A model generated the notes under the pieces. The model did no database searches and was not told the DNA's origin. It saw nothing but the letters and a program-made list of their open reading frames with translations. DNA of 35,201 nucleotides from an uncultured archaeon (lineage in GTDB: Archaea > Asgardarchaeota > Thorarchaeia > Thorarchaeales > Thorarchaeaceae). Each line of letters starts with the position of its first letter. Position 1 is the stretch's first letter. Location: the NCBI GenBank assembly GCA_964458565.1, contig CAYWJO010000032.1:1-35201 (forward strand). Reading direction: 5' to 3'. Shown here in pieces: positions 13,669 through 35,201 of the stretch. The translations under genes were made by a program, and so were the position numbers.

Positions 13669-14602
13669 TAAGGCGTTTGAATACCTCATTTGCGATATAC
13701 ACCTCTGTGCCTGCTAATCCCACAGAACAGAACAATGTAATTTCATCATCCGAAGTACGCCCCACTACTTCACCGCTGGCTATTTTTCCGAGTTCCCTCA
13801 TACGTTCTCGATGAATTGTTTTGGCTAAAAAATAGGGATTGGTATACTTTTCATAACTGTCCAATTGTGCAAACGAATCGGTGACAATTACATGGCTTCT
13901 TTCTGCAACCTTCATCTCTATCTCGTTTGTCCCCTCCAGATTCGGACCAAGAGTGGTTACATGCATTCCCCGTTCAAGTAGTTCTGCATTGAAGACTGGT
14001 TTCTTACTTCTTGTTGCACAAATAACAATTTCAGACCCTCCTATTGCTTCATCAGAAGAGCTGACCGCATCTATTTCAAGATTCAACTTTTCTGACATCT
14101 CGGATGCGAATGACTCTCTATGTTCTCTAGTTGGACTATAGACTTTTATTGTCTTTAATTTTCGGACAACACTCGCTGCTTCAAGCTGCGATCGAGCTTG
14201 AGTTCCCGAACCAATTAGGCCTAACGTTTTTGCATCTGATTTTGCTAGATACTTGAGGGCAATACCACCTATGGCTCCTGTGCGAATCACACCTATCCTG
14301 AATCCTGTTACAATTCCTTTTAGGACACCACTCTTTCCGTCAAAAACAACAACTAATTGAGTATTACCTGGACTCTTCTTTGGAAATGTTTCGTAAACCC
14401 GAAATCCGGTAGAAGCTTCTTGTCCCGTTGAAGCACCTGCCGTGAATACAAGATTTCCTTCACCTGAATCTAATACGAACCGAGCAGGTGCCGCCAGAGT
14501 TCCCTCGGCATGTTCATTGAGTGCCGACTCAATCCTTGTGATAGCATCTGTCATTTGTAGAACTTCATCTACCTGCTCGTCTGCAATGATTTGATACTTC
14601 AT
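13661..14602 (-). CDS. ornithine cyclodeaminase/mu-crystallin family protein
   Basis: IRTGA, IGSGTQAR, VICAT, ITLFCSVGLA motifs; start moved to ATG 14602. Confidence 0.9.
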   Translation of the reverse strand: MKYQIIADEQVDEVLQMTDAITRIESALNEHAEGTLAAPARFVLDSGEGNLVFTAGASTGQEASTGFRVYETFPKKSPGNTQLVVVFDGKSGVLKGIVTGFRIGVIRTGAIGGIALKYLAKSDAKTLGLIGSGTQARSQLEAASVVRKLKTIKVYSPTREHRESFASEMSEKLNLEIDAVSSSDEAIGGSEIVICATRSKKPVFNAELLERGMHVTTLGPNLEGTNEIEMKVAERSHVIVTDSFAQLDSYEKYTNPYFLAKTIHRERMRELGKIASGEVVGRTSDDEITLFCSVGLAGTEVYIANEVFKRLTK

Positions 14603-14723: not shown

Positions 14724-14798
14724 GCGGCCATAGTCTAGGGGCCATGATAGAGCCCTTCCAAGGCTCTGACCCGGGTTCAAATCCCGGTGGCCGCACCA
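14724..14798 (+). tRNA. tRNA-Gly(TCC), CCA encoded
   Basis: acceptor GCGGCCA/TGGCCGC, anticodon arm GAGCC-CT TCC AA-GGCTC, T arm CCGGG-TTCAAAT-CCCGG, ACCA end; TTTAAAA box upstream. Confidence 0.97.
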
Positions 14799-14927
14799 TT
14801 ATTCTTCACTCTTATCTTTGGTATTCAGCAACACAATGCTTTTGTTATTACCACTCTGAGATGGTTGAGTAACAACATTCGATATGATGTGACGAATATT
14901 CGTTTACCCAATGAGGCGTTCAAAAGC

Positions 14928-16934
14928 ATGGAATCTCTATACCATCATGGCATCTTAGTCCTAGAACCTCCTCCGCCGCGTGGGCTCACCATAAGAGCAA
15001 GAGCACAAGATATAGTACTCAACCAGTCGCAGGAAGAGATGGCGTTTGCTTGGGTGAAGAAATTAGGAACTCCATATGTCGAAGATCCCACGTTTGCGCA
15101 CAACTTCATGATGGACTTCAGCAAAGCTCTCAATATAGATCCTCCTTTGAAAGTAGAAGAGGTTGACTTCTCATCAGTAATTGAGGTTGTTGAATTTGAA
15201 CGCACTCAGAAAGAAAACGCGACAAAGGAAGAAAAGAAAGCTGCACGCGAAGAACGTAAGGTACTCAGAGAACAATTGAAGGAGAAGTATGGGTACGCAA
15301 TTGTTGACGATGAGAGAATGGAACTTGCAAACTATCAAACTGAGCCCTCAGGTATATTCATGGGCCGTGGTGAACATCCACTTCGCGGACGGTGGAAACA
15401 GGGTGCAACCTATTCTGACATTACTCTGAATCTTTCTCCTGAAGCTGAAATGCCTCCAGGTAACTGGGGTGAGATAATCTGGGCTCCAGAATGTATGTGG
15501 ATTGCTAAGTGGACAGATGAGTTGACTGGGAAGTTGAAATATATCTGGCTTCATGATAGCACCCCGATAAAACAACAGAGAGAAGCAGAGAAATTCGATA
15601 AGGCATTAAAAGTCGAGAAAAATATTGATGAAATCCGTGAGAAAATAATGGTAGAACTTCGTTCAGATGACCACCGCAGGAGAATGGTTGCAGCAGCTTG
15701 TTACCTCATCGATAGACTAAGTCTTCGAGTTGGTGATGAAAAAGATCCGGACGAAGCTGACACTGTAGGAGCGACTACCCTTCGCGTAGAACATCTCACA
15801 TTCAAAGACAATTCAGTAGTATTCGATTTTCTTGGCAAGGATTCAGTTGCATGGCATAAGGAACTCGAGATGCCTGTAGATGTCTATACAGTCTTCAAAG
15901 AACTCTATGATGTCGCAGTAGACCGAGTTGAATCATTTGAGTCACGAAGGCGTAAGAAAACTCGTGGTGACCCAAAGAAGATTGCTCAAATATTCCCTGA
16001 CATTGGTAGTACCCATGTGAATCGTTTTCTTAGTGAGATTGATAGTGACCTGACTGCTAAGGTATTCAGAACATTTCATGCTACGGTAAAAATGCGTGAA
16101 GAATTGAAAGAAAGTAAGGCAAGGGCAAGCGATCCAGAGTTCATTAAGAAAGCGGCCTTCAAACGAGCAAATTTAGAAGTCGCTCGAGTGATGAACCATA
16201 CAAAACAAGCCCCTATAGGATGGAGCCGAAGTGCTGAACGTTATGAAGGGCGAATAAGGAAGGCTGAGAAACGGATTTCGAAGACAAAGAAGATACTATC
16301 TGAAAAACAGTCACGATTGAAGAAACTAAGGAAGAAGGAACAGGCGGCTCTTACTAATAAACAAGAAATTGTCACAAAACAGAAAACAATCGTTGCAAAG
16401 AACTGGGATTCGGTAAAATCTAAGCGTGAATCGCGTGACAAGGCAAAAACCACATGGGATAATGCTAGAACTAACAAGAGTCGAATCCGGAGCAGTCGTC
16501 GAAAAGCACAACAGTCCAAGAAAGAACGCCTTGAAGATGCACAGGATAGAATTGATAGAACTAAGAAGCGTCTTGATTCAGCTGAAGAAGGCCTGGCCCA
16601 GTCTCGCGAGAGATACGAAAAGAGCAAAGCATCCCTTGAGAAAAAGCAGGAATCACTTGACATATTCAAAGAGAAATCCAAGGAGCGTATTGCTCGTTTC
16701 ATAAAAACCGTTGAACGTGCAAAAGAGAGTGTGATGAAAGCCGAACTTGCAAAAGAAAAAATCAAGGTGGATTATGAGATGGCAAAATCAAGTCGTACAT
16801 GGAACCTAGGGACGTCACTTAAATCATACATCCATCCAAGAGTTGTTGGTAAATGGTGTAAGCGTGTAGAATTTGATTGGACTAAGGTCTATTCATCAAC
16901 ACTCCAAAAGAAATTCAGCCACTTCTTTGAATGA
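14928..16934 (+). CDS. top1: DNA topoisomerase IB, eukaryote-like, with a long coiled-coil linker
   Basis: cap-domain motifs EPSGIFMGRGEHPLRGRWK and WTDELTGKLKY; catalytic pentad R(LRVG) K(FLGKD) R(KVFRT) H(MNH) Y(SLKSYIHPR); start moved to ATG 14928 because the longer ORF overlaps the tRNA. Confidence 0.96.
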   Translation: MESLYHHGILVLEPPPPRGLTIRARAQDIVLNQSQEEMAFAWVKKLGTPYVEDPTFAHNFMMDFSKALNIDPPLKVEEVDFSSVIEVVEFERTQKENATKEEKKAAREERKVLREQLKEKYGYAIVDDERMELANYQTEPSGIFMGRGEHPLRGRWKQGATYSDITLNLSPEAEMPPGNWGEIIWAPECMWIAKWTDELTGKLKYIWLHDSTPIKQQREAEKFDKALKVEKNIDEIREKIMVELRSDDHRRRMVAAACYLIDRLSLRVGDEKDPDEADTVGATTLRVEHLTFKDNSVVFDFLGKDSVAWHKELEMPVDVYTVFKELYDVAVDRVESFESRRRKKTRGDPKKIAQIFPDIGSTHVNRFLSEIDSDLTAKVFRTFHATVKMREELKESKARASDPEFIKKAAFKRANLEVARVMNHTKQAPIGWSRSAERYEGRIRKAEKRISKTKKILSEKQSRLKKLRKKEQAALTNKQEIVTKQKTIVAKNWDSVKSKRESRDKAKTTWDNARTNKSRIRSSRRKAQQSKKERLEDAQDRIDRTKKRLDSAEEGLAQSRERYEKSKASLEKKQESLDIFKEKSKERIARFIKTVERAKESVMKAELAKEKIKVDYEMAKSSRTWNLGTSLKSYIHPRVVGKWCKRVEFDWTKVYSSTLQKKFSHFFE

Positions 16935-22380: not shown

Positions 22381-22402
22381 TGGTGCGCTTGGTGGGGTTT
22401 GA
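22381..22402 (-). repeat. orphan tRNA 3'-end fragment (copy A1)
   Basis: minus strand TCAAAC-CCCAC-CAAGCGC-A-CCA = T-loop, T-stem 3' strand, acceptor 3' strand, discriminator, CCA. Confidence 0.65.
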
Positions 22403-22478
22403 GATCGTGCTGCGATAATCTTGCTTAATCCTCGCATTATTTATTCAATGTACAGAGGTTTACTCAAGAGGTATAATC

Positions 22479-23405
22479 GTGAAGATATTTCAAAGACCAT
22501 TCAGTTTTGAGAGAAACTTGGATGAGGTACGTTTGTTCCTGCTCGAGGTCTACAAACAAACCGATGCTCTTCATTACCTGATTCCAATAAAGATTGAGAA
22601 CCAGAAATTTGGTCCATGCGGTGAGGATTATTCTCCTAAAGATGATGAAGCACTTAAGATTTGGAGAACATCAGACAAGGACGATTCTGACATTGTTGCC
22701 ATATCTCATCGTGGTTCAGCAGCAAATTATCACATTGAGATACACCCAAGCAACAAATCATTGGAAAATGATTTGTTTCAAGAGATTGAGAAGCTCGAGA
22801 GAAACATTGTTGGCAAATTAGGCTCTCGAATGTATATGTACACAGTAGGTCCTGATTCTATGAGACCTAAGGTCCTAGCTGAAATGGGCTACGAAGATTA
22901 TGGTCTTCACGAATATAATTATGAATTCCTTCAGGGAGCTTCGATACCTGACAATCCGCTACCAGATGGATACAGAATAAGAGGTCTAAGAGATGAACAA
23001 GATTATGTCAAGTTTATCGAGGTAATCGGTTCAGTCTACGACCATTGTCGTCAATATATGACTCTTGAGAAGATGAGATGGATGACAGAGGCTGAATTCT
23101 ATCATCAAGACCTTAACTTAGCCGTTGCTGATGAAAAAGACAGGTTTGTTGGATTCTGTATGTATCGATTGGATCCCATCACAGGTATCGCAGAAATGGA
23201 ATCACTAGGTGCTCATCCTGATTCCAGTGACTTGGGACTAGAAGAGGCTCTGCTCTCAGAGGGTTTAAGACGTGTGATGAAGCATCAGCCAAGATTAATC
23301 TGTGCAGTTGAGATCGATATTTCAGACCCAATGAATAAGGAGCTCGAATCTGCAGGTTTTGTTCGAAGCGTGACGATGAACATGTGGGGAAAGATTCTAG
23401 AATGA
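22479..23405 (+). CDS. GNAT-family acetyltransferase (tandem domain)
   Basis: LPDGYRIR, FVGFC, AEMESLGAHP...LGLEEALLSEGLRR, LESAGF: GNAT fold with a degenerate acetyl-CoA motif. Confidence 0.72.
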   Translation: MKIFQRPFSFERNLDEVRLFLLEVYKQTDALHYLIPIKIENQKFGPCGEDYSPKDDEALKIWRTSDKDDSDIVAISHRGSAANYHIEIHPSNKSLENDLFQEIEKLERNIVGKLGSRMYMYTVGPDSMRPKVLAEMGYEDYGLHEYNYEFLQGASIPDNPLPDGYRIRGLRDEQDYVKFIEVIGSVYDHCRQYMTLEKMRWMTEAEFYHQDLNLAVADEKDRFVGFCMYRLDPITGIAEMESLGAHPDSSDLGLEEALLSEGLRRVMKHQPRLICAVEIDISDPMNKELESAGFVRSVTMNMWGKILE

Positions 23406-23412
23406 GAAGAAG

Positions 23413-23427
23413 TGGTGCGCTTGGCGG
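23413..23427 (-). repeat. orphan tRNA 3'-end fragment (copy A2)
   Basis: TGGTGCGCTTGGCGG, 14/15 identical to 22381-22395; minus strand reads CCGCCAAGCGCACCA. Confidence 0.55.
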
Positions 23428-23433
23428 TCAAAA

Positions 23434-24279
23434 TCAATTTTGGACTTTGTCCAATTCCTTCCGACGTTTTTGAATTTTCGAGTATAATTCGTCGGAGTTT
23501 TCGGGTGGAACATGCAGCTTCTCTTTTCTCTTCAGCTCCAAAGCATCTGAAGGACAATTAGCAACACATATCCCACAACCGATGCAGCGATCTAGATTGA
23601 TATTCACTGTTTCTTCTTCTAGCGTTACTGCCTCCATCTGACACAAGTCAACACAGGTTCCACATGCAGTGCATAACTTGGAATCAACTTCAGCATAGTA
23701 ATTGGTGGTGAAGAAATCTACTGTACGCGGGGCCATTTTGGTGCTTGCGAGGAGTCCACAGCAACACCCACAACAACTGCATACAAATTCGAGGTTTTGG
23801 GTGTTACTAGGTTGAAGGACTAAGCCCTCATTTTTATTTTGCTCAAGAATGTGAAGCATTTCTTCCTTAGAAACCTCGCGGCCCCACCCAAAATCAGTAT
23901 ATGCTGTTGTGAACTTGCCCACACCAAAACAGAGTTCTCGTCGATCTGTAGCTTTACATGGCTCACCACCGACATCTTTCTCTTCCCGACAAACACAATT
24001 GATGACCACAAATGGGCCCTCTGATTCTTCGATTAGAAGCTGAATATTATCATACTGAGCAACACTATCTTCCCGTCGGATACTTTTTCCAACAGGTATT
24101 GTGCGAATCTGTGGGATGCCGGTTTCCTGAATCTCTTCTATGGGTGGTGAGCTGTAGAAATGTTGAATGTCAGTGACGAGTTCAGGCGTGATATTACCTA
24201 CTTGAAATTCATAAATACCAATCACCCACGGGGCATTGCCATAAAATTTAGTATTGTTTTCCCTTCGGTATGTGATGAA
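23434..24279 (-). pseudogene. 5'-truncated 4Fe-4S dicluster protein (Cys-rich CSCCGCCC family)
   Basis: CVCR, CSCCGCCC and two CxxCxxCxxxC motifs; the frame stays open upstream of the annotated GTG (KTFITYRRENNTKFYGNAPWVIGIYEFQ) to a TGA next to the tRNA, with no start codon. Confidence 0.65.
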
Positions 24280-24311
24280 GGTCTTTCATCGAAATTCAAA
24301 AGAATGAAAAA

Positions 24312-24449
24312 TGGTGCGTCTGCCGGGACTTGAACCCGGGCCGGTTCCGATCTGCGGTCCAGAAGAACATTCCTCCAGACATTGGCAGGGAACCATCATA
24401 GCCCCGTGGCCGATTTTTCAGAATCCGAAAAACCTTAGACAACAGACGC
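24312..24449 (-). tRNA. tRNA-Gly(GCC) with two introns (D-loop 24406-24435; canonical 37/38 at 24350-24382)
   Basis: removing 30 nt and 33 nt leaves the 75-nt GCGTCTG TT GTC TAGGGGCTAT GAT G GTTCC CT GCC AC GGAAC CGGC CCGGG TTCAAGT CCCGG CAGACGC ACCA, colinear with the tRNA-Gly(TCC) at 14724; TTTAAA box ~25-30 nt upstream. Confidence 0.93.
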
Positions 24450-24979
24450 CTAGAAGAAGTCGCGTGTAGTGTGGATTTAAAGATTATGACATGTCATACC
24501 AATATGGAGATGACCATATGATTACCTCATATCGTGAGGGTTCTAAGGGGCAATGATGGATGACCTATTGTTGAAAGCGAGTGAACTTCAACTTCATACA
24601 ACTCATGCGTTCCACCCGTCCCTTGCCAGTGTTACCACCATCCATCATTTTTGAGAAAATGCTAGACTTAGCAAAGGTACTGTCTGTTATCATCGGGATG
24701 GAATCCCTCCTACAGTCCTGGCTTCTTTCTCCTGTTGTGTTCTGGTCGTATCATCTCCAGCAACAGCGAGTGTTTCTGCATCTTTTTCCACAGCCAGGTC
24801 ATTATCACCCTTCCTAACCTCATCACTGAAGTCAAGAAGACTCACTTGAGCATGGTGAACGACCTTGGAATTCTGATGAGGTTTCTCTATAATTGATTCC
24901 ATTATTGAGATAATTTCATTGATTCTCGTCGCTACATCATTAGGAATCAATAAAAGAACGTAGTACCAATCAGTGTTTT

Positions 24980-26107
24980 ATGTCCGACTTGGCAATGGAA
25001 TCCAAAGAACCAATTTCTGCCTCACCTGAAACAAAAAAGAGCGGAACACGGTTAGAGTGGATTGATGTTGCGAAGGGCATTGGCATGTTTCTTGTTATTT
25101 GGGAGCATGCTACCTATGCAGATTTTCCTCCCTTGAATCATGTTTTTGTAAGCTTTGTAATGCCGATGTACTTCTTACTTGCAGGCTTGACCTACAACAA
25201 TAAAAAGTACCGCCAAGATTTGAGGGGATTCCTCTCATCTCGAGGTCGCCAGTTCATGATACCCTATGTGATTCTCATGGGTCTCTGGATTGCTATGGCT
25301 GCTCTTATCCCGGGAACTACGGAACAAGGCGCTGGAGAACTTGTATTCTGGTTTGTATATGGAGCTGGTCCTCCAACTGGATCTCCACACCTCTGGTTTC
25401 TTCCTATGATGTATCTAGCGATGATTATTTTTGTCGTCCTTGACAAGGTGATGGAACGATTGCCATATCAGGCAAAATGGATTCTGTTTCTCGTGTTTCC
25501 ACTGATTGCACTATACTTCAATACCATCTTTGCAGGTTACTTAGTTTCTGCTTGGCCTTATACTACAGGTCTTGTGCCCTGGCGATTGGGTGGTGTGTTT
25601 GTTGCAGCTACATTTATGCAAATGGGAAATGAGATACGGCGCTTCATGAAGCTCAAGGAATGGTCGCTTGGTCGAACATCATTAGATATCTCTGCTATTA
25701 TTGGGATGAGTATGATTCTTCTTGCTCTCTCGGAGATGAATGGTTACACTGACATTGCTTCAGATATCATCGGTTTGATCTGGATATACTTAGCAACTGG
25801 GATAATTGGGACCTATATTATGTTTTCAGGATCTTTTCTAATCACAAAATACACAACACGATTCAAGGATTTCCTTGTGAGGGTTGGTAACAGCTCACAA
25901 GAGATTTATGAACTTCATCCTATGACGATGCGTCTATTACCACCTATTCTTGGAATCTTCGGTGTAGCAGCGGAACTTTGGTGGCTTAACCCTGACTGGT
26001 GGCTCTTGAATTCCATCTTCATTTGCATTACCACCATTCCTCTGGTGTTCTATGTAATTAGTAAGAACAAGTATTTGAGATTCATATTCAAGGGTTCAAC
26101 AAAGTGA
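24980..26107 (+). CDS. acyltransferase family 3 membrane O-acyltransferase (paralogue 1)
   Basis: RLEWIDVAKGIG..LVIWEH, SFVMPMYF, HLWFL, GNSSQEIYELH; ~10 TM. Confidence 0.92.
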   Translation: MSDLAMESKEPISASPETKKSGTRLEWIDVAKGIGMFLVIWEHATYADFPPLNHVFVSFVMPMYFLLAGLTYNNKKYRQDLRGFLSSRGRQFMIPYVILMGLWIAMAALIPGTTEQGAGELVFWFVYGAGPPTGSPHLWFLPMMYLAMIIFVVLDKVMERLPYQAKWILFLVFPLIALYFNTIFAGYLVSAWPYTTGLVPWRLGGVFVAATFMQMGNEIRRFMKLKEWSLGRTSLDISAIIGMSMILLALSEMNGYTDIASDIIGLIWIYLATGIIGTYIMFSGSFLITKYTTRFKDFLVRVGNSSQEIYELHPMTMRLLPPILGIFGVAAELWWLNPDWWLLNSIFICITTIPLVFYVISKNKYLRFIFKGSTK

Positions 26108-26199
26108 TATGTAGCAACAAAAGATGTTAGTCTTCCCTGATGCGAGCTTCGTAAGCAATAAAAGGAATTTTACCTAAAAACGGGTTGTAACAGGAAGGG

Positions 26200-27345
26200 A
26201 TGGATTTGGCAACCTCTCAAGAACCATCGCAGATTACAGAACAAAAGAGGATACAATCTCGAATAGAATGGGTGGATGTTGCAAAGGGTATTGGTGTCTT
26301 CATTGTGATTTATTGCCATGCTACATGGCAGAATGTTCCTCCATGGGACCATCTTCCTGTTAGCTTTGTTATGCCCATGTATTTCATGCTCGCCGGACTC
26401 ACCTACAATAACAAGAAGTATCGTGAGAATATGAAGGAGTTTGCTATTTCTCGTGGTAAACAATTCATGATTCCTTACACCATTCTCATGGCTCTTTGGA
26501 TTCTTATGGCTGCTCTGATGCCCAGTTCTTCTATTCAGACTTGGGATGAGCTGATTTTCTGGTTCTTATATGGTGCCGGACCTCCAACAGGGTCTCCCCA
26601 TCTCTGGTTTCTTCCCATGTTGTACCTAGGAATGATTATCTTTGTGGTATTTGACAAAATACTTGCTGGACTTCCTGACATCTCAAGATGGTTATTGATT
26701 CTCTTCTTTCCACTTGCGACAGTATTTCTCAATGGATATGTCGCAACTTTTCTATTGGAATATTTCCCTTTTACAGCGGGTCTAATCCCCTGGAGGCTTG
26801 GTGGAGTATTCATGACAGCTGCATTTGTAGCCCTGGGAAATGAAATTCGTCGATATATGAAACTCAGGGATTGGACTATTGGTCGTCTTAGTCTGGATAT
26901 ACCTGCAATCGTTGGAATGTCAATGATTCTAGTTGCAGTTTCAACAGTAAATGGATTCACAGATATAGCCTCAGACAACATTGGTCTTGTTCATCCAGTT
27001 TACGTTTCAGTTTGGCTTTACTTGACCACGGGTGTTATCGGGACTTGCATAACCTTTGCAAGCTCTTCATTGATTGTCAAATTGACAACACGTTTCAAGA
27101 ATTTCATGATACGAGTTGGGAACAGCTCCCAGCAGATTTACGAGATACATCCGATGATACTTCGTCTTGCACCACTCTTCTTAGGTCTGTTCGGAATAAT
27201 AATGATTAATCCTGTTGAAAGTGCCATCAATTTCTGGATCTTCAACTATATCTTCATCACAGTATTGTCCATCCCTATTGTCTTCTACGTGATTAACCGA
27301 GTATCAATACTGAGATTCATGTTCACAGGCTCAAAGGATGAATGA
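26200..27345 (+). CDS. acyltransferase family 3 membrane O-acyltransferase (paralogue 2)
   Basis: RIEWVDVAKGIG..IVIYCH, SFVMPMYF, HLWFL, GNSSQQIYEIH. Confidence 0.92.
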   Translation: MDLATSQEPSQITEQKRIQSRIEWVDVAKGIGVFIVIYCHATWQNVPPWDHLPVSFVMPMYFMLAGLTYNNKKYRENMKEFAISRGKQFMIPYTILMALWILMAALMPSSSIQTWDELIFWFLYGAGPPTGSPHLWFLPMLYLGMIIFVVFDKILAGLPDISRWLLILFFPLATVFLNGYVATFLLEYFPFTAGLIPWRLGGVFMTAAFVALGNEIRRYMKLRDWTIGRLSLDIPAIVGMSMILVAVSTVNGFTDIASDNIGLVHPVYVSVWLYLTTGVIGTCITFASSSLIVKLTTRFKNFMIRVGNSSQQIYEIHPMILRLAPLFLGLFGIIMINPVESAINFWIFNYIFITVLSIPIVFYVINRVSILRFMFTGSKDE

Positions 27346-27412
27346 TTGATTTCTCTAGCTCTTGTAGGATAATACATTAGGAGGCCTCTCCTACAAGACA
27401 ACCCGACATAGG

Positions 27413-28105
27413 ATGAGTGCTACACAGGAACTCGTACAGCTCAAGAAAGAGATTATGCAGGAGATATACAGGAATCGAATGCTCTTGACTTCGGTTCGTG
27501 ATAAGCCTGAAGGATGGACTTTGATATCCGGACTTTGGAGTCCGTTCTATATTCAGCTTCGGATTCTAAGTTCTTTTCCCTCAACTCTAAAGAAGGTCGG
27601 AATCGCAATGTCTCAGTTGATAAGAGAGGAATCTCCTGATGTGACCAGGGTGGTCGGTATTGCACATGCAGGAGTACCTATAGCTACTGCAATTTCTTTG
27701 GAATCGGGAATCCCTGCTTGTCATACTAGAAAAATCGCTGGAGTCAGATCCGAAGAGGACTTGAGAGATGCGATACCTAATTATGGTCAGCATTCTCTTC
27801 TTGAGGGGATTATTGAAGAAGATGATGTCTTATGTATCGTTGACGACCTAGTTACAGGGATGAACAGTAAATTGATTGCGAGAGCACAGGTCTTAGAGGA
27901 GATACAAAAGAGGGGTGTTTCTGGTGTTCGATGTGATGCTATTGCTGTAATAGTTGATCGGCAACAAGGAGCGGTAACCATCGCAAAAGAGAGAGGTCTA
28001 AATCTGCACTCATTAATCAAGTTTGTAGATGAAGGATTACCCATTCTGAGGGGTGATATGTCTGAAGAAGAATATACTTCAATCATTGAATACCTTCAGA
28101 ACTGA
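27413..28105 (+). CDS. pyrE: orotate phosphoribosyltransferase-like protein
   Basis: TLISGLWSPFYIQLR, GIAHAGVP, IVDDLVT PRPP motif, IVDRQQG. Confidence 0.8.
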   Translation: MSATQELVQLKKEIMQEIYRNRMLLTSVRDKPEGWTLISGLWSPFYIQLRILSSFPSTLKKVGIAMSQLIREESPDVTRVVGIAHAGVPIATAISLESGIPACHTRKIAGVRSEEDLRDAIPNYGQHSLLEGIIEEDDVLCIVDDLVTGMNSKLIARAQVLEEIQKRGVSGVRCDAIAVIVDRQQGAVTIAKERGLNLHSLIKFVDEGLPILRGDMSEEEYTSIIEYLQN

Positions 28106-28164
28106 GTCTTACAACAAATAGAAAATCCTTTCAGACGCCGATGTAAGTCAAATTTGCAACAGCT

Positions 28165-28614
28165 ATGACCGAAACTATGAATGCTTTGAAGCCCATGTTG
28201 AAAGTAGCAATGGCGACAGTAGGAAATCATTTTCATTTCTATTCCCGTGCAGCTGATACTGTTGAAACCCCTAGAGTGAAGGCTCTTCTCATGGTTTTAA
28301 CTGAATCAGAAGAGGAACTATTGGAAAAGATAGAGGACATGATGCTTACAGGGGTTGTTGATGAGATTCAGGAAATAAGTGGTCTCAAAATGGATAGTCC
28401 AGACGCAATGCCCTTTGACCTTACTCGTGAAGATACTGATCCCAGAATTTACATATGTAATAGAGCTTTAGAGCAAGAGATTAAGGCATTCACTTTCTTT
28501 CTTTCAATTGCCTCCCGTGCAAAATCAGAGGTCATAAGCAGAGTCTTCGAGTACTTTGCGTATGTAAAATCTCAGCAGATTCAACGTATACGAAACGTCT
28601 GCAGCACATTCTGA
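28165..28614 (+). CDS. ferritin-like (rubrerythrin-fold) protein with degenerate metal site
   Basis: two helix-pair repeats (..FYSRAAD..VKALL..L..SE / ALEQEIKAFTFF..A..VFEYFA). Confidence 0.65.
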   Translation: MTETMNALKPMLKVAMATVGNHFHFYSRAADTVETPRVKALLMVLTESEEELLEKIEDMMLTGVVDEIQEISGLKMDSPDAMPFDLTREDTDPRIYICNRALEQEIKAFTFFLSIASRAKSEVISRVFEYFAYVKSQQIQRIRNVCSTF

Positions 28615-28696
28615 TTCTCTTCATTCTTTTTCGGCCAAATTCTACCTCCTAATACTTAGAACACGTGTTCCAATAATTCACAAAATCGCAGGGCGC

Positions 28697-28749
28697 TTTT
28701 TATATTTTATATAAATATATTTATATACATATGATTAATTAATATAAAT
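28697..28749. promoter_or_regulatory. AT-rich tract containing a 20-bp palindrome; probable promoter/operator
   Basis: TATATAAATATATTTATATA at 28708-28727 inside an almost purely AT stretch. Confidence 0.5.
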
Positions 28750-28842
28750 CAAGGGCCTCTGAGGCTGTCCTGAACGTCTGGACCCGAATCCGTTCCATCG
28801 GAAGTGATGGGGTCCGAGGGTCCGAAAATTGGTGATTTCGAA

Positions 28843-29235
28843 ATGGTGTCGGTACCGAAAATAGAAAAACCTGTCATGATACCTCCAATTCTACTGGTTG
28901 ATTATGACGACTTCAAGAACTATGCAAATGACGCTGTTCTTGTGACTTACGATGTGGAATTCTTCAATGGTCCATTTCTGGATGTTGAAAAGAAATTTAG
29001 GAGATTGACTCTCCATGCCATTGGGGTAAAGATAGAAAGCGTTCCACTAACTTTCAAGTTTGTGCTTGACTATAACTCCCTTGAATTGCAGGGTACAGAT
29101 TGGGTGCAAAAGACAACTGATTTGGACGCTCTTGTTAGGAATATTCTTGATGAATTGAATAGTAGTGTCCGACTAGTTAGAGGTACTATTGATCAAGAAC
29201 AAGAGATTGGTGCTGTATTGTCAGCTGTCTACTAG
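28843..29235 (+). CDS. hypothetical protein
   Basis: ATG 28843 follows a GGTGA RBS; no motif recognised. Confidence 0.7.
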   Translation: MVSVPKIEKPVMIPPILLVDYDDFKNYANDAVLVTYDVEFFNGPFLDVEKKFRRLTLHAIGVKIESVPLTFKFVLDYNSLELQGTDWVQKTTDLDALVRNILDELNSSVRLVRGTIDQEQEIGAVLSAVY

Positions 29236-29327
29236 TATGCTCTCACACTATCAATCCTGATTCAGAGTCAAAATCAACAAACCATTATCGTTATCAGCAT
29301 ATGCCTCTTACTACTATTTGAACAAGT

Positions 29328-29855
29328 TTGACCGAAAGGGAACCAGTACCCATTGAAGACATTCTTCCAAGAATTTTACAGGACTACTCCGATGAACCCC
29401 GCGGCTGGAGAATCCTATCGACACCTATAGGTGACATGCTAGTTTTTGGTCCTACTTCTTCTTTTCAACTGAAACTAATCCCTCTTGGTCCCCAGAAATA
29501 CACAGGTGCTGGTGTTGAGATAACTGAATCCAAGAAGACACTCAAACGAATAAGTCGAACTCCTGAATTCGGGTTGAGACCATTAAGCTCTGGGGATATT
29601 ACAGACCTGATTCAAGCTTTTGATGACCCCCAGACCTCTAGTTTGAAGATACAATCAATACTGAGTCGAACACCTCAATCACATTCTGATTTAGCTGAAT
29701 CAGATGTTGACCACATCTTATCCGGTCCAATACTTACACGTCCTGATTTTGGTTCATTAGACCCGGAAATTCTGAAGAGACAACTATTACTTGACCGTTC
29801 TGCTTCTGATGTGTTTAGAAGACGTTATCCAATGAGGTCTGGAATGTATTTCTAG
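29328..29855 (+). CDS. hypothetical protein
   Basis: 175 aa ORF co-oriented with its neighbours; no motif recognised. Confidence 0.7.
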   Translation: MTEREPVPIEDILPRILQDYSDEPRGWRILSTPIGDMLVFGPTSSFQLKLIPLGPQKYTGAGVEITESKKTLKRISRTPEFGLRPLSSGDITDLIQAFDDPQTSSLKIQSILSRTPQSHSDLAESDVDHILSGPILTRPDFGSLDPEILKRQLLLDRSASDVFRRRYPMRSGMYF

Positions 29856-29932
29856 TGTTGCCAGACCAAAATCCTATTACGGCTTTTTGCAAAATCTAGG
29901 ACTCAGTTGCATGGACTGTAAGGGAACTAACC

Positions 29933-30409
29933 ATGATACGCAATATCTTCATCATTGATAATGATGGCAATAGTCTGGTTGCGGTAAACTTTGGAGAATG
30001 CCATTCCTTAAGCGAGAACTCTCGCGTGGTTTCTGGATTTATTAGCGCAATTCATAATTTCTCAAGAAACCTCTCTGGTGAAGGAGCTAACGAGATTCGA
30101 TTAGGTGATCTCTTTTTCCTCATTCGAAATCATAATGATTTTCTATTTGTGTTGACAGCAGACACTGATAACAGAGACGAAAATACGCGTAAATTACAGA
30201 CTATCAGATCACTCTTTATTGAGAGATACGCAGAATATCTCACCGATAACATTGATTCCATTGATAGTACAGTGTTTGATGATTTTGGTTCCTTGCTCAT
30301 TTCTTCAGGGATTGCGGAGTATAATTGTGGTGATAATCCCACCTGCGAAGAATGTGAGAATCGCCACAAGATGCTGCCCCTAGATGAAATGACTGATCAG
30401 ATATCATGA
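29933..30409 (+). CDS. longin-domain protein with C-terminal Cys motif (eukaryotic signature protein)
   Basis: MIRNIFIIDNDG, VSGFISAIHNFS, FLFVLTAD, IRSLFIERY fit the Asgard longin pattern; tail CGDNPTCEEC. Confidence 0.8.
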   Translation: MIRNIFIIDNDGNSLVAVNFGECHSLSENSRVVSGFISAIHNFSRNLSGEGANEIRLGDLFFLIRNHNDFLFVLTADTDNRDENTRKLQTIRSLFIERYAEYLTDNIDSIDSTVFDDFGSLLISSGIAEYNCGDNPTCEECENRHKMLPLDEMTDQIS

Positions 30410-30456
30410 AGAAGTGATGGTAGGTCAGACGTGATTTGAATACGTGACCACCACAT
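30409..30456 (-). repeat. degenerate tRNA 3'-half repeat (copy B1)
   Basis: AAGAAGTGATGGTAGGTCAGACGTGATTTGAATACGTGACCACCACAT, direct repeat of 31542-31587. Confidence 0.75.
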
Positions 30457-30499
30457 ATTGACGATGAACGAAGTATAACAACTACAGTTAGGTTTCAAC

Positions 30500-30778
30500 T
30501 TAACGTTGGCTTACCTTCTCAATCGCTTGAAGTACTTCATCCACTTTCATCTGGGAAAGAATTCCTCTGATGGCATCAAGTTCGCTCTGGCTTCTTATTA
30601 TGATCCCCATCTTATTGATTGGATTTCCACTTTCACCAATCGGATTAATCTCAACAGCTAAGTAGGCTGGCCCATCCTTTGATTGAGGTATCTTTCTGAT
30701 GAATATTCCAGGTTCATCAGTCCGTAATCGTTCCCATTTCCTCCCGTGTCTGAGCATATCTCTCAGTGATGCTTCCAT
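30500..30778 (-). CDS. small archaeal hypothetical protein
   Basis: WERLRT..PGIFIRKIP...LAVEINP pattern recalled from small archaeal proteins; GAGTGA RBS. Confidence 0.7.
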   Translation of the reverse strand: MEASLRDMLRHGRKWERLRTDEPGIFIRKIPQSKDGPAYLAVEINPIGESGNPINKMGIIIRSQSELDAIRGILSQMKVDEVLQAIEKVSQR

Positions 30779-30908
30779 TCAAATCACTCATTTATCTTAA
30801 TTAACCGTCTTGATAAATTATATTGCATCTTGTCTGTGCAACAGATACTCAGGTCCGAATATCTTACGTGCCATGACATATATAATAGCAGTTTATTCAC
30901 TTGAGAAT

Positions 30909-31394
30909 ATGAAAGAAAAATCCAAGTTTTCAGTTACATTCAAGGATGATTCAATTGTAAAGCTTGTGAGAAAGACTGACCACAGAACATTAGCCATCTG
31001 GGCAGTTGATTGTGTCGAGCGTGTCATGCCATACTTTGAGGAAGCGCACCCAGAAGACCCCCGTCCCCGAAAAGCTATTGAAACACTCCAAAAATGGATA
31101 CATACTGGAATATTCAAGATGGCAGATATACGCAAAGCTTCACTTGATGCTCATGCGGCTGCTCGCGAGGTGGGAGAAGATAATGCTGCTCGCTCTGCTG
31201 CTCGTGCCGCAGGTCAAGCGGTGGCAACTGCACACGTTCCCACTCATTCTATTGCTGCCGCAAATTATGCCTTACAGGCTATTCATAGAACCGTCAAACC
31301 CTCTGATGTCGATGCTGCCATAGCCAAAGAACGAGATTGGCAATACCAGCATTTACTTGAATTGAAGAATAGTAATCCTAGTTTACAGCCTTGA
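30909..31394 (+). CDS. Imm5-like putative immunity protein
   Basis: DHRTLAIWAVDCVERV..FE...PEDPRPRKAIE, AHAAAR, AARAAGQAVATAHVPTH; start moved to ATG 30909. Confidence 0.8.
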   Translation: MKEKSKFSVTFKDDSIVKLVRKTDHRTLAIWAVDCVERVMPYFEEAHPEDPRPRKAIETLQKWIHTGIFKMADIRKASLDAHAAAREVGEDNAARSAARAAGQAVATAHVPTHSIAAANYALQAIHRTVKPSDVDAAIAKERDWQYQHLLELKNSNPSLQP

Positions 31395-31541
31395 AAAACT
31401 ATGTTACATCTTGTAGGAGTTTTTTCACGCAGAAACTCTCAGACAATACGGATTTTACTAGAGTGTTGATTCATGAGAAAGTAGTTGACACTTCTCTAGA
31501 TTTTGTCAAATCCAGAGCATAAGCTGCAACAATGAACTAGC

Positions 31542-31588
31542 AAGAAGTGATGGTGGGCCGGACGGGATTTGAACATGACCACCGCACG
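31542..31588 (-). repeat. tRNA 3'-half repeat (copy B2)
   Basis: minus strand ..GTGCGGTGGTCATGTTCAAATCCCGTCCGGCCCACCA-TCACTTCTT: T-loop, T-stem, acceptor strand, ACCA and a pyrimidine trailer. Confidence 0.8.
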
Positions 31589-31703
31589 TTTGAATGTGCG
31601 TGGAAGTCAAGCACATGTGTCATAGAATATGCTTTGAAAAGCAAACATATATAGGCTTATACGTTTGTATAAACAAACATATTTTGCTATTGAGGAATGC
31701 TGC

Positions 31704-32453
31704 TTGAGTGAAGATATTCCAGACCTCTTCCGAGATATTGTGTTGACTCCCGAAGGAGAGAGTCCAATCAAGGAAGTCATGTTCATTACTGATGAGAAAT
31801 CAGCTAGGGCATTTGACCACGAGGCACGTGTAGCCATTCTTACAATTCTCGCACGTGGTATAAAGGACAGGTCCACATCTGTTCAATATGATCAGGAGAG
31901 TGATGTACGAACTGAAACAACTAAGAGAGTAGTTCGAACTGCACTCTCAGTCATAGAGATTGTAAAAATGTCTAAGAAATATGATGATGTCATGCCGCTT
32001 ACTCGCAATCAAATCTATCATCATCTCCCAGTAATGATTGATAGTGGCATCATAGTAAAGCATGGCACTGTACAAAATGGGAATAGATTCACAGATTATT
32101 ACAGACGTACTGCGATAAGTTATGTCTTGACATTAGAAACGCCTGACTATGGGGATGAATTTCTTAGGAAAATAGAATCAGATAGATTAGACAAACTTCT
32201 ATCGATGTTTACATTGAGTCTTGATAATTCCCAGCAGAAGAAACTTCTCGAATTGAGAGTTAAAATGCAAAAACTCCAAGACCGTTGGCGTCCAATGATT
32301 GCTAAGATGGCACAAGATGATGTCACGGACCGAGAGATCATTCGTTTCTATCACTGGCTACTTGACATCTACTCCTTGATGAATCCGGAGTACATTGAGT
32401 TAGGTAAGAGTATTGCGAAGATTCTGTTCCCTGAAGCTTTGGAGGGTCAGTAA
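31704..32453 (+). CDS. ArsR-like winged-helix transcriptional regulator
   Basis: AFDHEARVAILTIL, LSVIEI, LTRNQIYHHLPVMIDSGII, TDYYRRTA; probable TTG start after GAGG. Confidence 0.75.
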   Translation: MSEDIPDLFRDIVLTPEGESPIKEVMFITDEKSARAFDHEARVAILTILARGIKDRSTSVQYDQESDVRTETTKRVVRTALSVIEIVKMSKKYDDVMPLTRNQIYHHLPVMIDSGIIVKHGTVQNGNRFTDYYRRTAISYVLTLETPDYGDEFLRKIESDRLDKLLSMFTLSLDNSQQKKLLELRVKMQKLQDRWRPMIAKMAQDDVTDREIIRFYHWLLDIYSLMNPEYIELGKSIAKILFPEALEGQ

Positions 32454-33838
32454 TGAGAGACATTGGTCACATGGCTGTGGAAGCTGCAAGAGATGCGGGT
32501 GCAGATTTTGCTGATGTACGAGTTGAACGGACACAGAAGTTCAGTATTGAGGTGCATGATAGTATCCCGAGAAAGGGACTTGTCGCGAAGATTACAGGAG
32601 CTGGAATACGTGTACTTGTAGCAGGGTCATGGGGTTTTTGTCCAACCTCTAATCTGGATCCAAGTAATATTCGAGAAGTCGCTAGGGCTGCTGTTGAGCT
32701 TGCGGTATCAAACAAGGATAGGGTCAAGAAAGTGTTTGAGATAGAACTTGACACCTGTGTTGATGAGGCAAAGACCCCAGTGAAGGTCCCATTACAGAAT
32801 GTATCGATTGAAGAGAAGTTAGCTCTACTCAAGGAGCTCAACAAAGAGGCGAGTGATATTGATGCTAGGGTGTTCAACTCACGAACAGCCTATCAAGAAA
32901 CAGTCACTAGCCTTCAAATAATCAACTCTCTTGGTACAGATGTTCATCTTGAATTGTCCATACCTTGGCTCAAGATTTTTGTTGCAGCACGTGAAAACTC
33001 TAGTAGTCAAAGGGGAGTCGCTAGACTTGGAGGGAGTGGCGGTTTTGAGCAGATGAACTATGAGAATGCCCGTGCTACCTTGGAGGAATCGGCAACTCTT
33101 GCCTTGGAAAAACTAGATTCTACCACTGTAAAGGGTGGTACATATGATGTGATTACTGACCCTGACCTGACAGGGGTGCTTGCTCACGAAGCCTTTGGAC
33201 ATGCATGTGAGGCAGATAACTGGGTCTCTAATGTGACGATTTTCAGAGGGCGCTTGGGAAAGAAACTGGGCTCTGAGGTCATCAATATCAGTGATGACCC
33301 TACTATCCTTGGATTGAGAGGGTCCTTTGCTTATGACTGGGAGGGAACAAAGACAAGAAAGCGTGAGCTGATAAAGAATGGTCGACTGAATGAATTGCTT
33401 CATACCCTTGAAACCGCCTCACGGATGAATTTAGAATGTACTGGTGCTGCTCGTTGTGAATCATTCATGTTTGAACCAATTCCTAGGATGGGCAACACTT
33501 TCTTTGAACCTGGTGACTGGAAGGTTGAGGAACTAATTGAAGACACTAAATCGGGTCTGATTCTATGTGGAATAGGTGGAGGGTACACCATGTCGAGCAG
33601 GGGCGTCTATGCCTTCATGTCAACCCATGGATATCTGATTGAATCAGGTGAACGAAGTCAGATCATCAGAGGTACCACCATCTCAGGAGAACATCTTGGA
33701 ACCTTAGTGAAGATTGACGCTCTTTGTGATGACTTCAGGATGAACTCTGGAACCTGTGGAAAGGCTGACCAGCACGTTCCTGACATGTCTGGCGGACCAC
33801 ATATACGAATACGCAATATGGTCGTAGGAGGTCAATAA
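32453..33838 (+). CDS. tldD: TldD metalloprotease subunit
   Basis: FADVR, GAGIRV, HEAFGHACEAD, DDPT, PIPRMGNT, CGK..Q.VP motifs. Confidence 0.93.
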   Translation: MRDIGHMAVEAARDAGADFADVRVERTQKFSIEVHDSIPRKGLVAKITGAGIRVLVAGSWGFCPTSNLDPSNIREVARAAVELAVSNKDRVKKVFEIELDTCVDEAKTPVKVPLQNVSIEEKLALLKELNKEASDIDARVFNSRTAYQETVTSLQIINSLGTDVHLELSIPWLKIFVAARENSSSQRGVARLGGSGGFEQMNYENARATLEESATLALEKLDSTTVKGGTYDVITDPDLTGVLAHEAFGHACEADNWVSNVTIFRGRLGKKLGSEVINISDDPTILGLRGSFAYDWEGTKTRKRELIKNGRLNELLHTLETASRMNLECTGAARCESFMFEPIPRMGNTFFEPGDWKVEELIEDTKSGLILCGIGGGYTMSSRGVYAFMSTHGYLIESGERSQIIRGTTISGEHLGTLVKIDALCDDFRMNSGTCGKADQHVPDMSGGPHIRIRNMVVGGQ

Positions 33839-35188
33839 TTGAAAGAAACACTCTTTGAGATTGGTGAGAGGCTATTAAGGTCTGCAGATAGGAAGAATAT
33901 CAGTCAGACTGAGGTCTATCTTGAATCCCTACAACGCAGAAAGCTCACCGTCGAAGGTGGGTCTGTTAAAACTGCAAAGAGAATCAATGACCAAGGTGTG
34001 GGGATACGAACTGCAATTGGAAGTCAGTTGGGTTTTGCATACACAACATCTCTAGCCTTTTCCGACTGTCAAGATGTTCTTGAGCAGTCAGCTACTCTCG
34101 CACGTGTCAATGACGAAGATCCCCTCTTTGTCGAGTTCCCTACTAGTGTAACATCTTATCCCCGAGTTTCTGGAATCTATGACAAAAGACTCACTAACCT
34201 GAAATCAGAGGAGATATCAACACTACTCTTTCGTGCAGTTGAGAGTAATCAAAATCACTTACGCGCTGGAGAGGTTATAATCTATGGGGATTTGGTAGTC
34301 ACTACAAAATCAATTGCTGTTCTGAATTCCAACGCAGTTCAAACCTTCAATGAACGGACTCAAATCATGCTTGAGATAGATTCGACTCTCAGAACCGATG
34401 ATCAACAACTGACCAGCTATGAGTCTCAATGCGGTACAAGATTGGCAGATGTTGATCCGGAGTGGGTGGGTCAGACTGCAGCGGAGAACACACTCAGAAT
34501 GATACATCCTAAACCAGTGGAGAATAAGCGGATGCCACTCGTGCTCTCACCTAGGACCTTAGAATCACTATTTGGGATGGGCTTCACCTCAGCAGTCAAT
34601 GCTGAGAACTATCTCACTGGTCAGTCCTATCTCAATGGGTTGTTGGAGTCAGATGTTGCATCTGAGGATTTGGTGATAGTAGATGATGGCAGTCTTGAGG
34701 GCGGCTATAATTCCTCCCCCTTTGATGGTGAGGGAAGTCCATCATCACAGACCGAGATTCTAGAGGGTGGAATTCTCAAGAGTCTACTTCACAGTTCCTA
34801 TACTGCAAATGCTTCAGGTTCTACTAACACGGGTAATGCAGTTCGAGACTCATATTCGGCCCTTCCATCAGTAGGTAGAACAAACCTTCAAATCAAGCCA
34901 GGTAAGGGTACTTTGGAGGACTTATTGTCAGAGATGAGTGAGGGTATCTATTGTCAGTTGTCCTTGGATCAGCCAAATTCTCTCACTGGGGAAATCAATG
35001 CACTGATCATGGAGGGATTCTACATCAAGGACGGTAAGATTCAACATCCTGTGAGAAACACAACCTTTGGAATAAACATGTGTGATCTGTTGAATAGGAT
35101 TGTACGTATTGGTGATGACACAAGAATGATGGAAGGATTCCTGAGTCCCAGTGTATTAATTGAATCAGTGGTTGTTACTTCGGATTGA
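33839..35188 (+). CDS. pmbA: PmbA/TldE subunit
   Basis: GVGIRT, PFDGEG, STNTGNA, GFYIKDGKI motifs; lacks HExxxH; directly follows tldD. Confidence 0.9.
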   Translation: MKETLFEIGERLLRSADRKNISQTEVYLESLQRRKLTVEGGSVKTAKRINDQGVGIRTAIGSQLGFAYTTSLAFSDCQDVLEQSATLARVNDEDPLFVEFPTSVTSYPRVSGIYDKRLTNLKSEEISTLLFRAVESNQNHLRAGEVIIYGDLVVTTKSIAVLNSNAVQTFNERTQIMLEIDSTLRTDDQQLTSYESQCGTRLADVDPEWVGQTAAENTLRMIHPKPVENKRMPLVLSPRTLESLFGMGFTSAVNAENYLTGQSYLNGLLESDVASEDLVIVDDGSLEGGYNSSPFDGEGSPSSQTEILEGGILKSLLHSSYTANASGSTNTGNAVRDSYSALPSVGRTNLQIKPGKGTLEDLLSEMSEGIYCQLSLDQPNSLTGEINALIMEGFYIKDGKIQHPVRNTTFGINMCDLLNRIVRIGDDTRMMEGFLSPSVLIESVVVTSD

Positions 35189-35201
35189 TAACATCTTTGA
35201 G

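Follow-up and report, generated by a model that had tools for sequence, protein, structure and literature searches.

Arrays of orphan tRNA 3' fragments and small gene modules downstream of two tRNA genes in a Thorarchaeota genome

tRNA genes are textbook landing pads for mobile DNA, and free-standing homing endonucleases reside in tRNA gene clusters, as in the SegB type of phage T4. Integrative elements can accrete in tandem at a tRNA gene, and sublocation classes have been defined for the integrases (Williams 2002, as cited in PMC8813620). Tandem integrative elements of archaea have been reviewed (PMC8371274), and a model that involves tRNA introns has been put forward for Caldiarchaeum (Sugahara et al., PMC3293823). 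In Prochlorococcus, tycheposons and tRNA-flanked islands come with their own tyrosine or serine recombinase and usually with a replication module (bioRxiv 10.1101/2020.12.28.424599). Here, we describe four orphan tRNA 3' fragments, named F1 to F4, and the small gene modules between them in a window that spans positions 1-35,201 of a scaffold of 39,503 bases (contig C32) of a Thorarchaeota metagenome-assembled genome (MAG), which is 93% complete and comprises 93 contigs. The parentage of the fragments, the order of the arrays that they form, the turnover of the modules and the clustering of the boundaries are directly observed, and this without local recombinases. We propose that F1-F4 are probably the scars of a serial insertion of small, integrase-less modules into tRNA-Gly and tRNA-Val genes. 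In the literature searched, we found no description of recombinase-free, tRNA-fragment-bounded single-gene arrays in Thorarchaeota.

An earlier sequence-only reading of the window had noted four orphan tRNA 3' fragments of two types on the minus strand. All four were located and each ends in CCA (Table 1); the parents are tRNA-Gly(GCC) for F1 and F2 and tRNA-Val(GAC) for F3 and F4. That reading had seen a single pattern spanning the window. Instead, there are two independent arrays, each trailing its own parent tRNA, which are separated by core genes (27413-30409) whose order is kept in G020, a genome of another genus (G000-G035 denote genomes of relatives, L0xx further loci or sequences, and L076 a close relative, an NCBI Thorarchaeota MAG). 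The orientation shared by F1-F4 arises because both arrays trail their parent gene. Read along the minus strand, the Gly array consists of tRNA-Gly(GCC), a Fer4 gene, F2, a GNAT-like gene, F1, an SBP_bac_5 and an AHSA1 gene, and then the core; the Val array consists of tRNA-Val(GAC), the PmbA, TldD and ArsR-like genes, F4, an Imm5-like and a 92-aa gene, F3, and then the core. In both arrays, direct repeats of the tRNA 3' portion thus lie downstream of a co-oriented intact tRNA gene. The modules contain mostly one gene, usually antisense to the tRNA. This layout resembles that of tandem tRNA elements, in which 3' repeats bounded at the anticodon loop or T loop follow an intact tRNA on the same strand and newer insertions displace older ones outward. 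It differs from them in that the arrays examined have no integrase and that the modules measure 0.5-3.6 kb with one to three genes, as opposed to whole viruses or plasmids.

Both parent genes are easily overlooked. The gene that the sequence-only reading took for the real tRNA is indeed an intact tRNA-Gly(GCC), as judged by its orthologs and a spliced call: it was missed by ARAGORN and scored only 14 bits with Rfam, and removal of the introns from tRNA-Gly(GCC) versions led ARAGORN to call tRNA-Gly. F1 and F2 lie on the same strand as this gene and downstream of it. Of tRNA-Val(GAC), the first 31 nt are found at positions 35332-35302 of the contig (minus strand), just past the window, and the remainder falls into a scaffold gap of 100 N (35202-35301). 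As a population check, we used contigs, and contigs only, from four public salt-marsh metagenome runs. Contigs of two of these runs join position 35201 to a second copy of 31576-31622, followed by the anticodon stem and D-loop intron, and the intact tRNA-Val therefore sits in the scaffold gap, where the tRNA-Val repeat probably broke the assembly.

The descent of the fragments is clearest from comparison with relatives. F1 and F2 match, column for column, well-preserved T-arm-plus-acceptor fragments of tRNA-Gly(GCC), which flank the GNAT-like gene in G020 and G017: F1 aligns with the fragment at 29220 of G020:C22 and with the G017:C2 copy, and F2 with the G020 fragment at 28138. Together with its trailer, F2 agrees at 23 of 26 positions with the 3' end of tRNA-Gly(GCC) in G001 and the flank of that gene. 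Between F1 and F2 themselves, identity is limited to 12 bases, TGGTGCGCTTGG, a match that alone would be no more than expected by chance in 35 kb. F3 and F4 are about 85% similar across roughly 50 nt, including 9 nt past the CCA, and F4 shares 88% identity over 76 nt with the intact, intron-bearing tRNA-Val(GAC) of G005, which belongs to another genus. All four have degenerated. F1 and F2 no longer have the T arm, in contrast to the G020 fragments, F3 has a T stem with four of five pairs and a mutated acceptor strand, and F4 has undergone a 2-nt deletion that disrupts its T stem, the L076 ortholog having an intact T arm. F3, which adjoins the conserved core gene 29933-30409, is the oldest scar. 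The fragments are not assembly artefacts, because independent contigs from the four runs span fragment junctions.

To place these fragments in the genome, 34 distinct 23-mers reaching from the T loop to CCA, taken from its own tRNAs, and two family versions were used as queries. With up to 2, 3 and 4 mismatches allowed, the numbers of matching sites were 45, 48 and 55, compared with 0, 0 and 2 for reversed queries and 0, 2 and 4 for shuffled ones. The sequence-only reading had named a frequency equal to the shuffled expectation as the result that would tell against it, and the counts are far from that. At least 13 orphans are left after removal of intact genes, versus 0-4 control matches, and for nearly all of the orphans a tRNA gene that shares their acceptor strand is found no more than a few kb away. 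An origin by chance was rejected on the grounds of these controls and of the orthologous fragments in relatives. In species-representative genomes, the exact tRNA-Val 23-mer was found at 35 loci, nearly all labelled Thorarchaeota or other Asgard lineages, and at 13 or more of the 35 loci one to three orphans follow downstream on the same strand, 0.4-2.4 kb apart.

The content between the fragments changes from genome to genome. G020:C22 is syntenic with the window, in reversed orientation, and carries the GNAT-like gene (82% nucleotide identity) between two perfectly kept tRNA-Gly(GCC) copies composed of T arm, acceptor strand and CCA, with two more copies nearby; in G017, the GNAT-like gene is accompanied by a further tRNA-Gly(GCC) copy. 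The gene was present in only two of 40 relatives compared for module genes, with 79-82% nucleotide identity, the flanking core genes being 65-70% identical. The unit of fragment, GNAT-like gene and fragment is common to the window, G020 and G017, that is to three genera, and homology ends at the fragments. For the Val array, the comparison with L076 is informative. The flank of F4, which includes the ArsR-like and TldD genes, is 90% identical at the nucleotide level and the 92-aa gene 85%, but in place of the Imm5-like gene L076 has genes for a beta-lactamase-fold protein, a 181-aa and a 281-aa protein, each followed by its own tRNA-Val fragment, and a TBP-like gene at the position of F3. Thus, the genes at the fragments are replaced, whereas the flanks persist. 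In other MAGs, tRNA-Val cargo comprises an aminotransferase, a Rce1-like protease and unassigned genes.

Might the fragments have been retained for a function, as terminators, as RNA-processing signals at gene ends or as halves of split tRNAs? The sequence-only reading had considered co-opted terminators or processing signals and pointed to two fragments right at stop codons, which do lie 7-8 nt away, and the pyrimidine-rich trailers could halt transcription. Moreover, the start of F4 is at the anticodon loop, where split tRNAs of archaea are usually divided. However, the purine-rich lead-in described for each fragment, while present and shared with the intact tRNA, is nothing special: it is the complement of the pyrimidine-rich trailer that tRNA genes ordinarily have. 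Pyrimidines make up 76% of the 12 nt past the CCA of 31 intact tRNAs, 78% for 16 orphans and 50% at random genomic positions. Stop codons of convergent cargo genes fall within this tract, and each orphan is either the former end of a working gene or arrived with the sequence needed to end one. The copies decay as described above, each type is found only downstream of its parent tRNA and not at gene ends generally, and the fragments are not split-tRNA halves, because intact parent genes stand beside them, with the intact tRNA-Val 3.6 kb upstream of F4 and its broken T stem. Judged by their sequences, F1-F4 are thus decaying scars without function and not working signals, and we regard retention for a function as highly improbable.

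No integrase or integrase fragment was detected with Pfam or PHROGs among the open reading frames (ORFs) of the arrays, where the search covered window ORFs of at least 80 aa without overlap with a longer ORF as well as the cassette ORFs. A 262-aa ORF beside F4 was considered as a hidden recombinase and rejected, as it codes for the ArsR-like regulator. The statement of the sequence-only reading that the 35 kb are free of integrases and transposases holds for integrases, but the window does contain a truncated 3' end of an IS605-family tnpB gene (Table 1). TnpB was rejected as the engine of the insertions: tRNA matches were seen in 3 of 22 flanks with a clear terminus, as compared to 0-4 (mean about 1) in shuffled or random sets, and there is no general targeting of tRNAs. 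A survey of the genome for tyrosine recombinases, which that reading had suggested, returned a single gene in a six-frame search with PF00589. This gene (on C53) lies among housekeeping genes, and there are none on the contig of the window or at the arrays examined. The family has 20 integrase genes in 11 of 31 genomes. No tRNA T arm with CCA was present within about 1.5 kb of any of the 20, nor within up to about 9 kb of the 14 that were refetched with wider flanks. An exact match to the Val or Gly att sequence was not found among the viral contigs of IMG/VR.

These searches bear on the idea that the fragments are remnants of integrase-bearing viruses or plasmids, from which the integrase and most genes were deleted, leaving att scars and a few cargo genes. 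tRNA-targeted integration is documented in Asgard archaea, with HeimV1 beside tRNA-Gly(CCC) and aloposons at tRNA sites (PMC8813620), and well known in other archaea (PMC3293823). Boundaries in the anticodon loop and T loop are classical integrase sublocations, MAGs often drop mobile elements at contig ends, and many of the family integrases do lie at contig ends. Yet, the intervals are tiny throughout many genomes and mostly contain one gene, the same single-gene module is found between fragments in three genera, the arrays lack an integrase or a fragment thereof among the ORFs searched, and no IMG/VR contig exactly matches either att sequence. We therefore consider this explanation unlikely. 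HeimV1, aloposons, tycheposons and tandem elements have their own recombinase or a large size, unlike the window arrays. The similarity to tycheposon islands lies in the position beside particular tRNAs, in scattered partial tRNAs as traces of successive integrations, a layout that is seen here, and in a cargo of niche and defence genes. The differences are that tycheposon-type recombinase and replication genes were not found in the arrays searched, that the host is an Asgard archaeon and that the modules mostly contain a single gene.

The positions at which the fragments begin hint at how the modules may have been inserted. F4 and at least nine orphans of other genomes begin at anticodon-loop positions 32-34, other tRNA-Val orphans begin at positions 36-44 or in the T arm, and in G020 and G017 the tRNA-Gly fragments start with the T stem; the boundaries thus fall at the fixed sublocations of tRNA-targeted elements (anticodon loop, T loop or 3' end). 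In a tRNA-Ala array on C19, two orphans have mismatched T stems, GCGAG/CACGC and GCGTG/CTCGC, and exchange of the arms across the 7-nt T loop yields two perfect stems, the pattern expected of serial crossovers within the T loop. In several genomes, the intact tRNA-Val carries an intron at 37/38 or in the variable region and the displaced copy does not, which fits the Caldiarchaeum model of Sugahara et al. (PMC3293823); F4 retains its intron. Among the tRNA-Gly(GCC) genes of the window, L019-L024 and G020, the intron sites vary by genus (37/38 only; D loop only; D loop and 37/38; 37/38 and T loop; or the T-arm region only), and G020, with the best-kept T-arm fragments, has an intact tRNA-Gly(GCC) (G020:C22, 27117-27257) with an intron in the T-arm region. 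The clustered boundaries, hybrid stems and intron pattern fit a site-specific recombinase.

The chemistry of insertion is the part of our proposal that we infer. New DNA would enter the tRNA gene at one of two sites, the anticodon loop or the T loop, and restore a working tRNA at the upstream end. The earlier 3' portion, together with its pyrimidine-rich trailer, would be displaced downstream, and repeated rounds would build the two co-oriented minus-strand arrays. In this way, the modules could act like cassettes that are moved by an enzyme encoded elsewhere. If serial insertion is accepted, a site-specific tyrosine-type recombinase acting in trans is, by our rough estimate, a reasonable possibility somewhat short of an even chance, breaks made by a homing nuclease and repaired from a donor allele are doubtful, and plain homologous recombination on short repeats is slightly more doubtful still.

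A nuclease could also act in another way, in which a selfish nuclease cuts the tRNA gene and repair brings in a cassette with a resistant tRNA and cargo, so that pieces of the old tRNA remain. Such a layout does occur in this archaeal family, and G020 provides two examples. Its old tRNA-Val is split into a 23-nt 5' piece (G020:C22, 11041-11063) and a 3' piece from T loop to CCA (14404-14426), and the 3.3-kb insert carries a different complete tRNA-Val and the gene for a protein of 948 aa that contains several HTH domains as well as two CxxC...HRKDG...CxxCH repeats matching HNH-endonuclease families of PHROGs. The old tRNA-Gly of G020 is split as well (23677-27549), by an insert that contains a complete tRNA-Gly in inverted orientation and the gene for a 1034-aa paralog, which shares the acidic N-terminal region of the 948-aa protein and to which Pfam assigns no family. 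In the genome studied here, a 292-aa paralog of the HNH-like part (on C5) is encoded beside tRNA-Asn and an orphan fragment. As in the SegB-type case, the HNH-like gene of G020 travels with a complete replacement tRNA inside a broken resident tRNA, although its role in cleavage is putative: motifs and PHROG matches are the basis for the HNH assignment, Pfam returned no match, and PDB sequence searches with the C-terminal part of the 1034-aa protein and with the 292-aa protein yielded nothing useful. The window shows a different picture, as its arrays are without a nuclease gene and F1-F4 are without a 5' remnant in the expected place, and the reciprocal hybrid T stems on C19 fit a precise crossover better than break repair. 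While the paired changes discussed below would be explained more easily by replacement of a whole gene than by a swap of the 3' part, we think that nuclease-driven tRNA replacement is improbable as the origin of F1-F4.

Several observations weigh against serial insertion of modules as the origin of the arrays. No enzyme candidate for the insertions was found within the arrays, and the contigs of the four metagenome runs contained neither excised circles nor empty sites nor arrays in another order, which is weak evidence. Acceptor strands differ within an array (CGGATGC, CGGACGC and CGAGCGC in G020; CAAGCGC in the window compared to CAGACGC in the intact gene), and the intact tRNA-Gly of the window differs from F1 and F2 by paired changes in both acceptor strands. 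A swap of the 3' part would lead to a mismatched stem, and the differences rather point to replacement of the whole tRNA or to compensatory change. Not every gene fits the cassette pattern either. The Fer4 gene is co-oriented with tRNA-Gly, and its homologs adjoin tRNA-Gly(GCC) in G001 and G016, in opposite orientation; due to this co-orientation and the homologs beside the same tRNA elsewhere, it may not be a cassette. There is no tRNA fragment between the Imm5-like and the 92-aa gene, and no further fragment bounds the SBP/AHSA1 segment (19.1-20.2 kb), for which G020 has one at the matching junction.

With these reservations, serial insertion of modules invites comparison with integrons, and an integron-like shuffling of genes was one of the suggestions of the sequence-only reading. 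The layout bears it out: strings of small, mostly single-gene modules are split by a short site-like repeat, modules are shared and reshuffled between genomes, with recurrence in three genera and turnover, and there is no integrase nearby. The parts are not those of an integron, which combines an IntI integrase, a neighbouring attI site and a Pc promoter with co-oriented, promoterless cassettes between attC sites. IntI, attI and attC are all missing here; the repeat derives from a tRNA gene, a working copy of which anchors the array, and the cargo is mostly antisense, converges on the repeat and needs its own promoters. As a mechanism, integron-like shuffling is hypothetical. We tentatively suggest that Thorarchaeota might run a tRNA-anchored cassette exchange, in which small promoter-bearing modules ending in a tRNA 3' portion are inserted at either the anticodon or the T loop, stacked, and swapped between genera by an enzyme encoded outside the array, and which would be integron-like in its working and built from different parts. 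Candidates for this enzyme would be a homing nuclease acting in trans or a recombinase that has escaped recognition.

Table 1. Features of the two arrays and of the neighbouring tRNA and tnpB pieces, with positions in the window.
Feature	Position	Strand	Description
F1	22381-22407	-	decayed tRNA-Gly(GCC) 3' end, T loop to CCA; distal boundary of GNAT-like module
GNAT-like gene	22479-23405	+	sole cargo between F2 and F1, antisense to them; weak Pfam Acetyltransf_1 match
F2	23413-23429	-	tRNA-Gly(GCC) acceptor 3' strand, CCA and trailer; between two convergent stop codons
4Fe-4S ferredoxin-domain (Fer4) gene	23434-24225	-	Pfam Fer4 families; between intact tRNA-Gly and F2
tRNA-Gly(GCC), intact	24312-24449	-	D-loop intron and 37/38 intron; parent of F1 and F2; orthologs in six related genera
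Inverted tRNA-Gly(GCC) 5' remnant	24543-24565	+	D arm to anticodon stem; abuts right end of tnpB remnant
tnpB remnant	24566-24950	-	truncated 3' end of IS605-family tnpB and conserved downstream region; member of multi-copy family
F3	30418-30455	-	decayed tRNA-Val(GAC) 3' part, from about position 39 to CCA
92-aa gene	30500-30778	-	F4-F3 interval; no Pfam or PHROG match
Imm5-like gene	30810-31394	+	putative immunity protein, F4-F3 interval; Pfam Imm5_like, E 5e-43
F4	31551-31622	-	tRNA-Val(GAC), anticodon loop through 37/38 intron to CCA
ArsR-like regulator and TldD/PmbA pair	31665-32453; 32453-33838, 33839-35188	+	assigned by Pfam; between tRNA-Val and F4

Besides the four fragments counted by the sequence-only reading, there is a fifth tRNA-derived piece in the window, on the plus strand. 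It is identical at about 21 of 23 positions to positions 10-31 of the tRNA-Gly of relatives and lies inverted, 100 nt from the intact gene, whose D-loop intron falls inside the matched stretch. It adjoins the tnpB remnant, which has 60-69% amino acid identity to the C termini of proteins of 374-558 aa; the full-length relatives carry a Cas12f1-like_TNB domain and, in one case, OrfB_IS605. Several copies of this tnpB family are present per genome across the archaeal family, many of them reduced to the same 3' portion, and in such elements the region downstream of tnpB encodes the scaffold of a guide RNA. In the window, as well as in one relative, the sequence flanking the right end of tnpB is an antisense match to a tRNA, and it seems that an older tRNA-Gly copy was struck by a tnpB element.

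The cargo of the Val array is scattered among relatives. The Imm5-like gene is sporadic, with 85% identity in G010 and 77% in G035, which belongs to another family of the phylum, and copies of the 92-aa gene with 78-85% nucleotide identity are found in G000:C41, G002:C50 and L076. Homologs of the ArsR-like regulator are named ArsR family or carry PF12840, and the ArsR-like/TldD/PmbA trio occurs together in L075 and L076. A 50-nt motif at 30828-30877, between the 92-aa and the Imm5-like genes, has a single copy in this genome. In G002:C50 it occurs three times, at a spacing of about 1 kb and with a single gene in at least one of the intervals; this motif may be another sort of module boundary. 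Past the window, three orphan tRNA 3' ends of a third type lie on the minus strand at contig positions 37715, 38301 and 39158, 0.6-0.9 kb apart. Their acceptor strand, CCTCGGC or CCGCGGC, is tRNA-Phe-like, and the outer two are each located shortly past a plus-strand ORF (112 aa and 215 aa).

Contigs of single metagenome runs departed from the assembled sequence at two places in the window. One low-depth contig of run X5 omits the 33-nt 37/38 intron of tRNA-Gly(GCC) (24349-24383), and could represent an intron-less allele in the population or the gene of a relative. Between 24980 and 27345, the window has two tandem Acyl_transf_3 paralogs, and a contig of run X4 omits 26110-27290; some cells may carry a single fused copy. 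The window opens with a 17-kb housekeeping block encoding ribosomal proteins, Spt5, FtsZ, an SRP54-type GTPase and topoisomerase IB. The gene for this eukaryote-type topoisomerase (715 aa; 14787-16934, plus strand) starts within the final bases of tRNA-Gly(TCC) (14724-14798), the sole tRNA reported by ARAGORN and Rfam for the window, and the overlap is kept at the equivalent place in G020. A tRNA-Asp with a 2.4-kb intron, called by ARAGORN in C39, was rejected as spurious since the region is protein-coding.

Most tRNA genes of this genome bear introns and are poorly detected. On the practical side, many of its tRNA genes escape standard tRNA finders, and tRNA repeats break assemblies. The arrays also bear on the intron richness of archaeal tRNA genes, as the positions of the introns vary by genus and displaced copies are often intron-less. 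If the modules are truly mobile, they would provide a path by which accessory genes spread among the archaea most closely related to eukaryotes.

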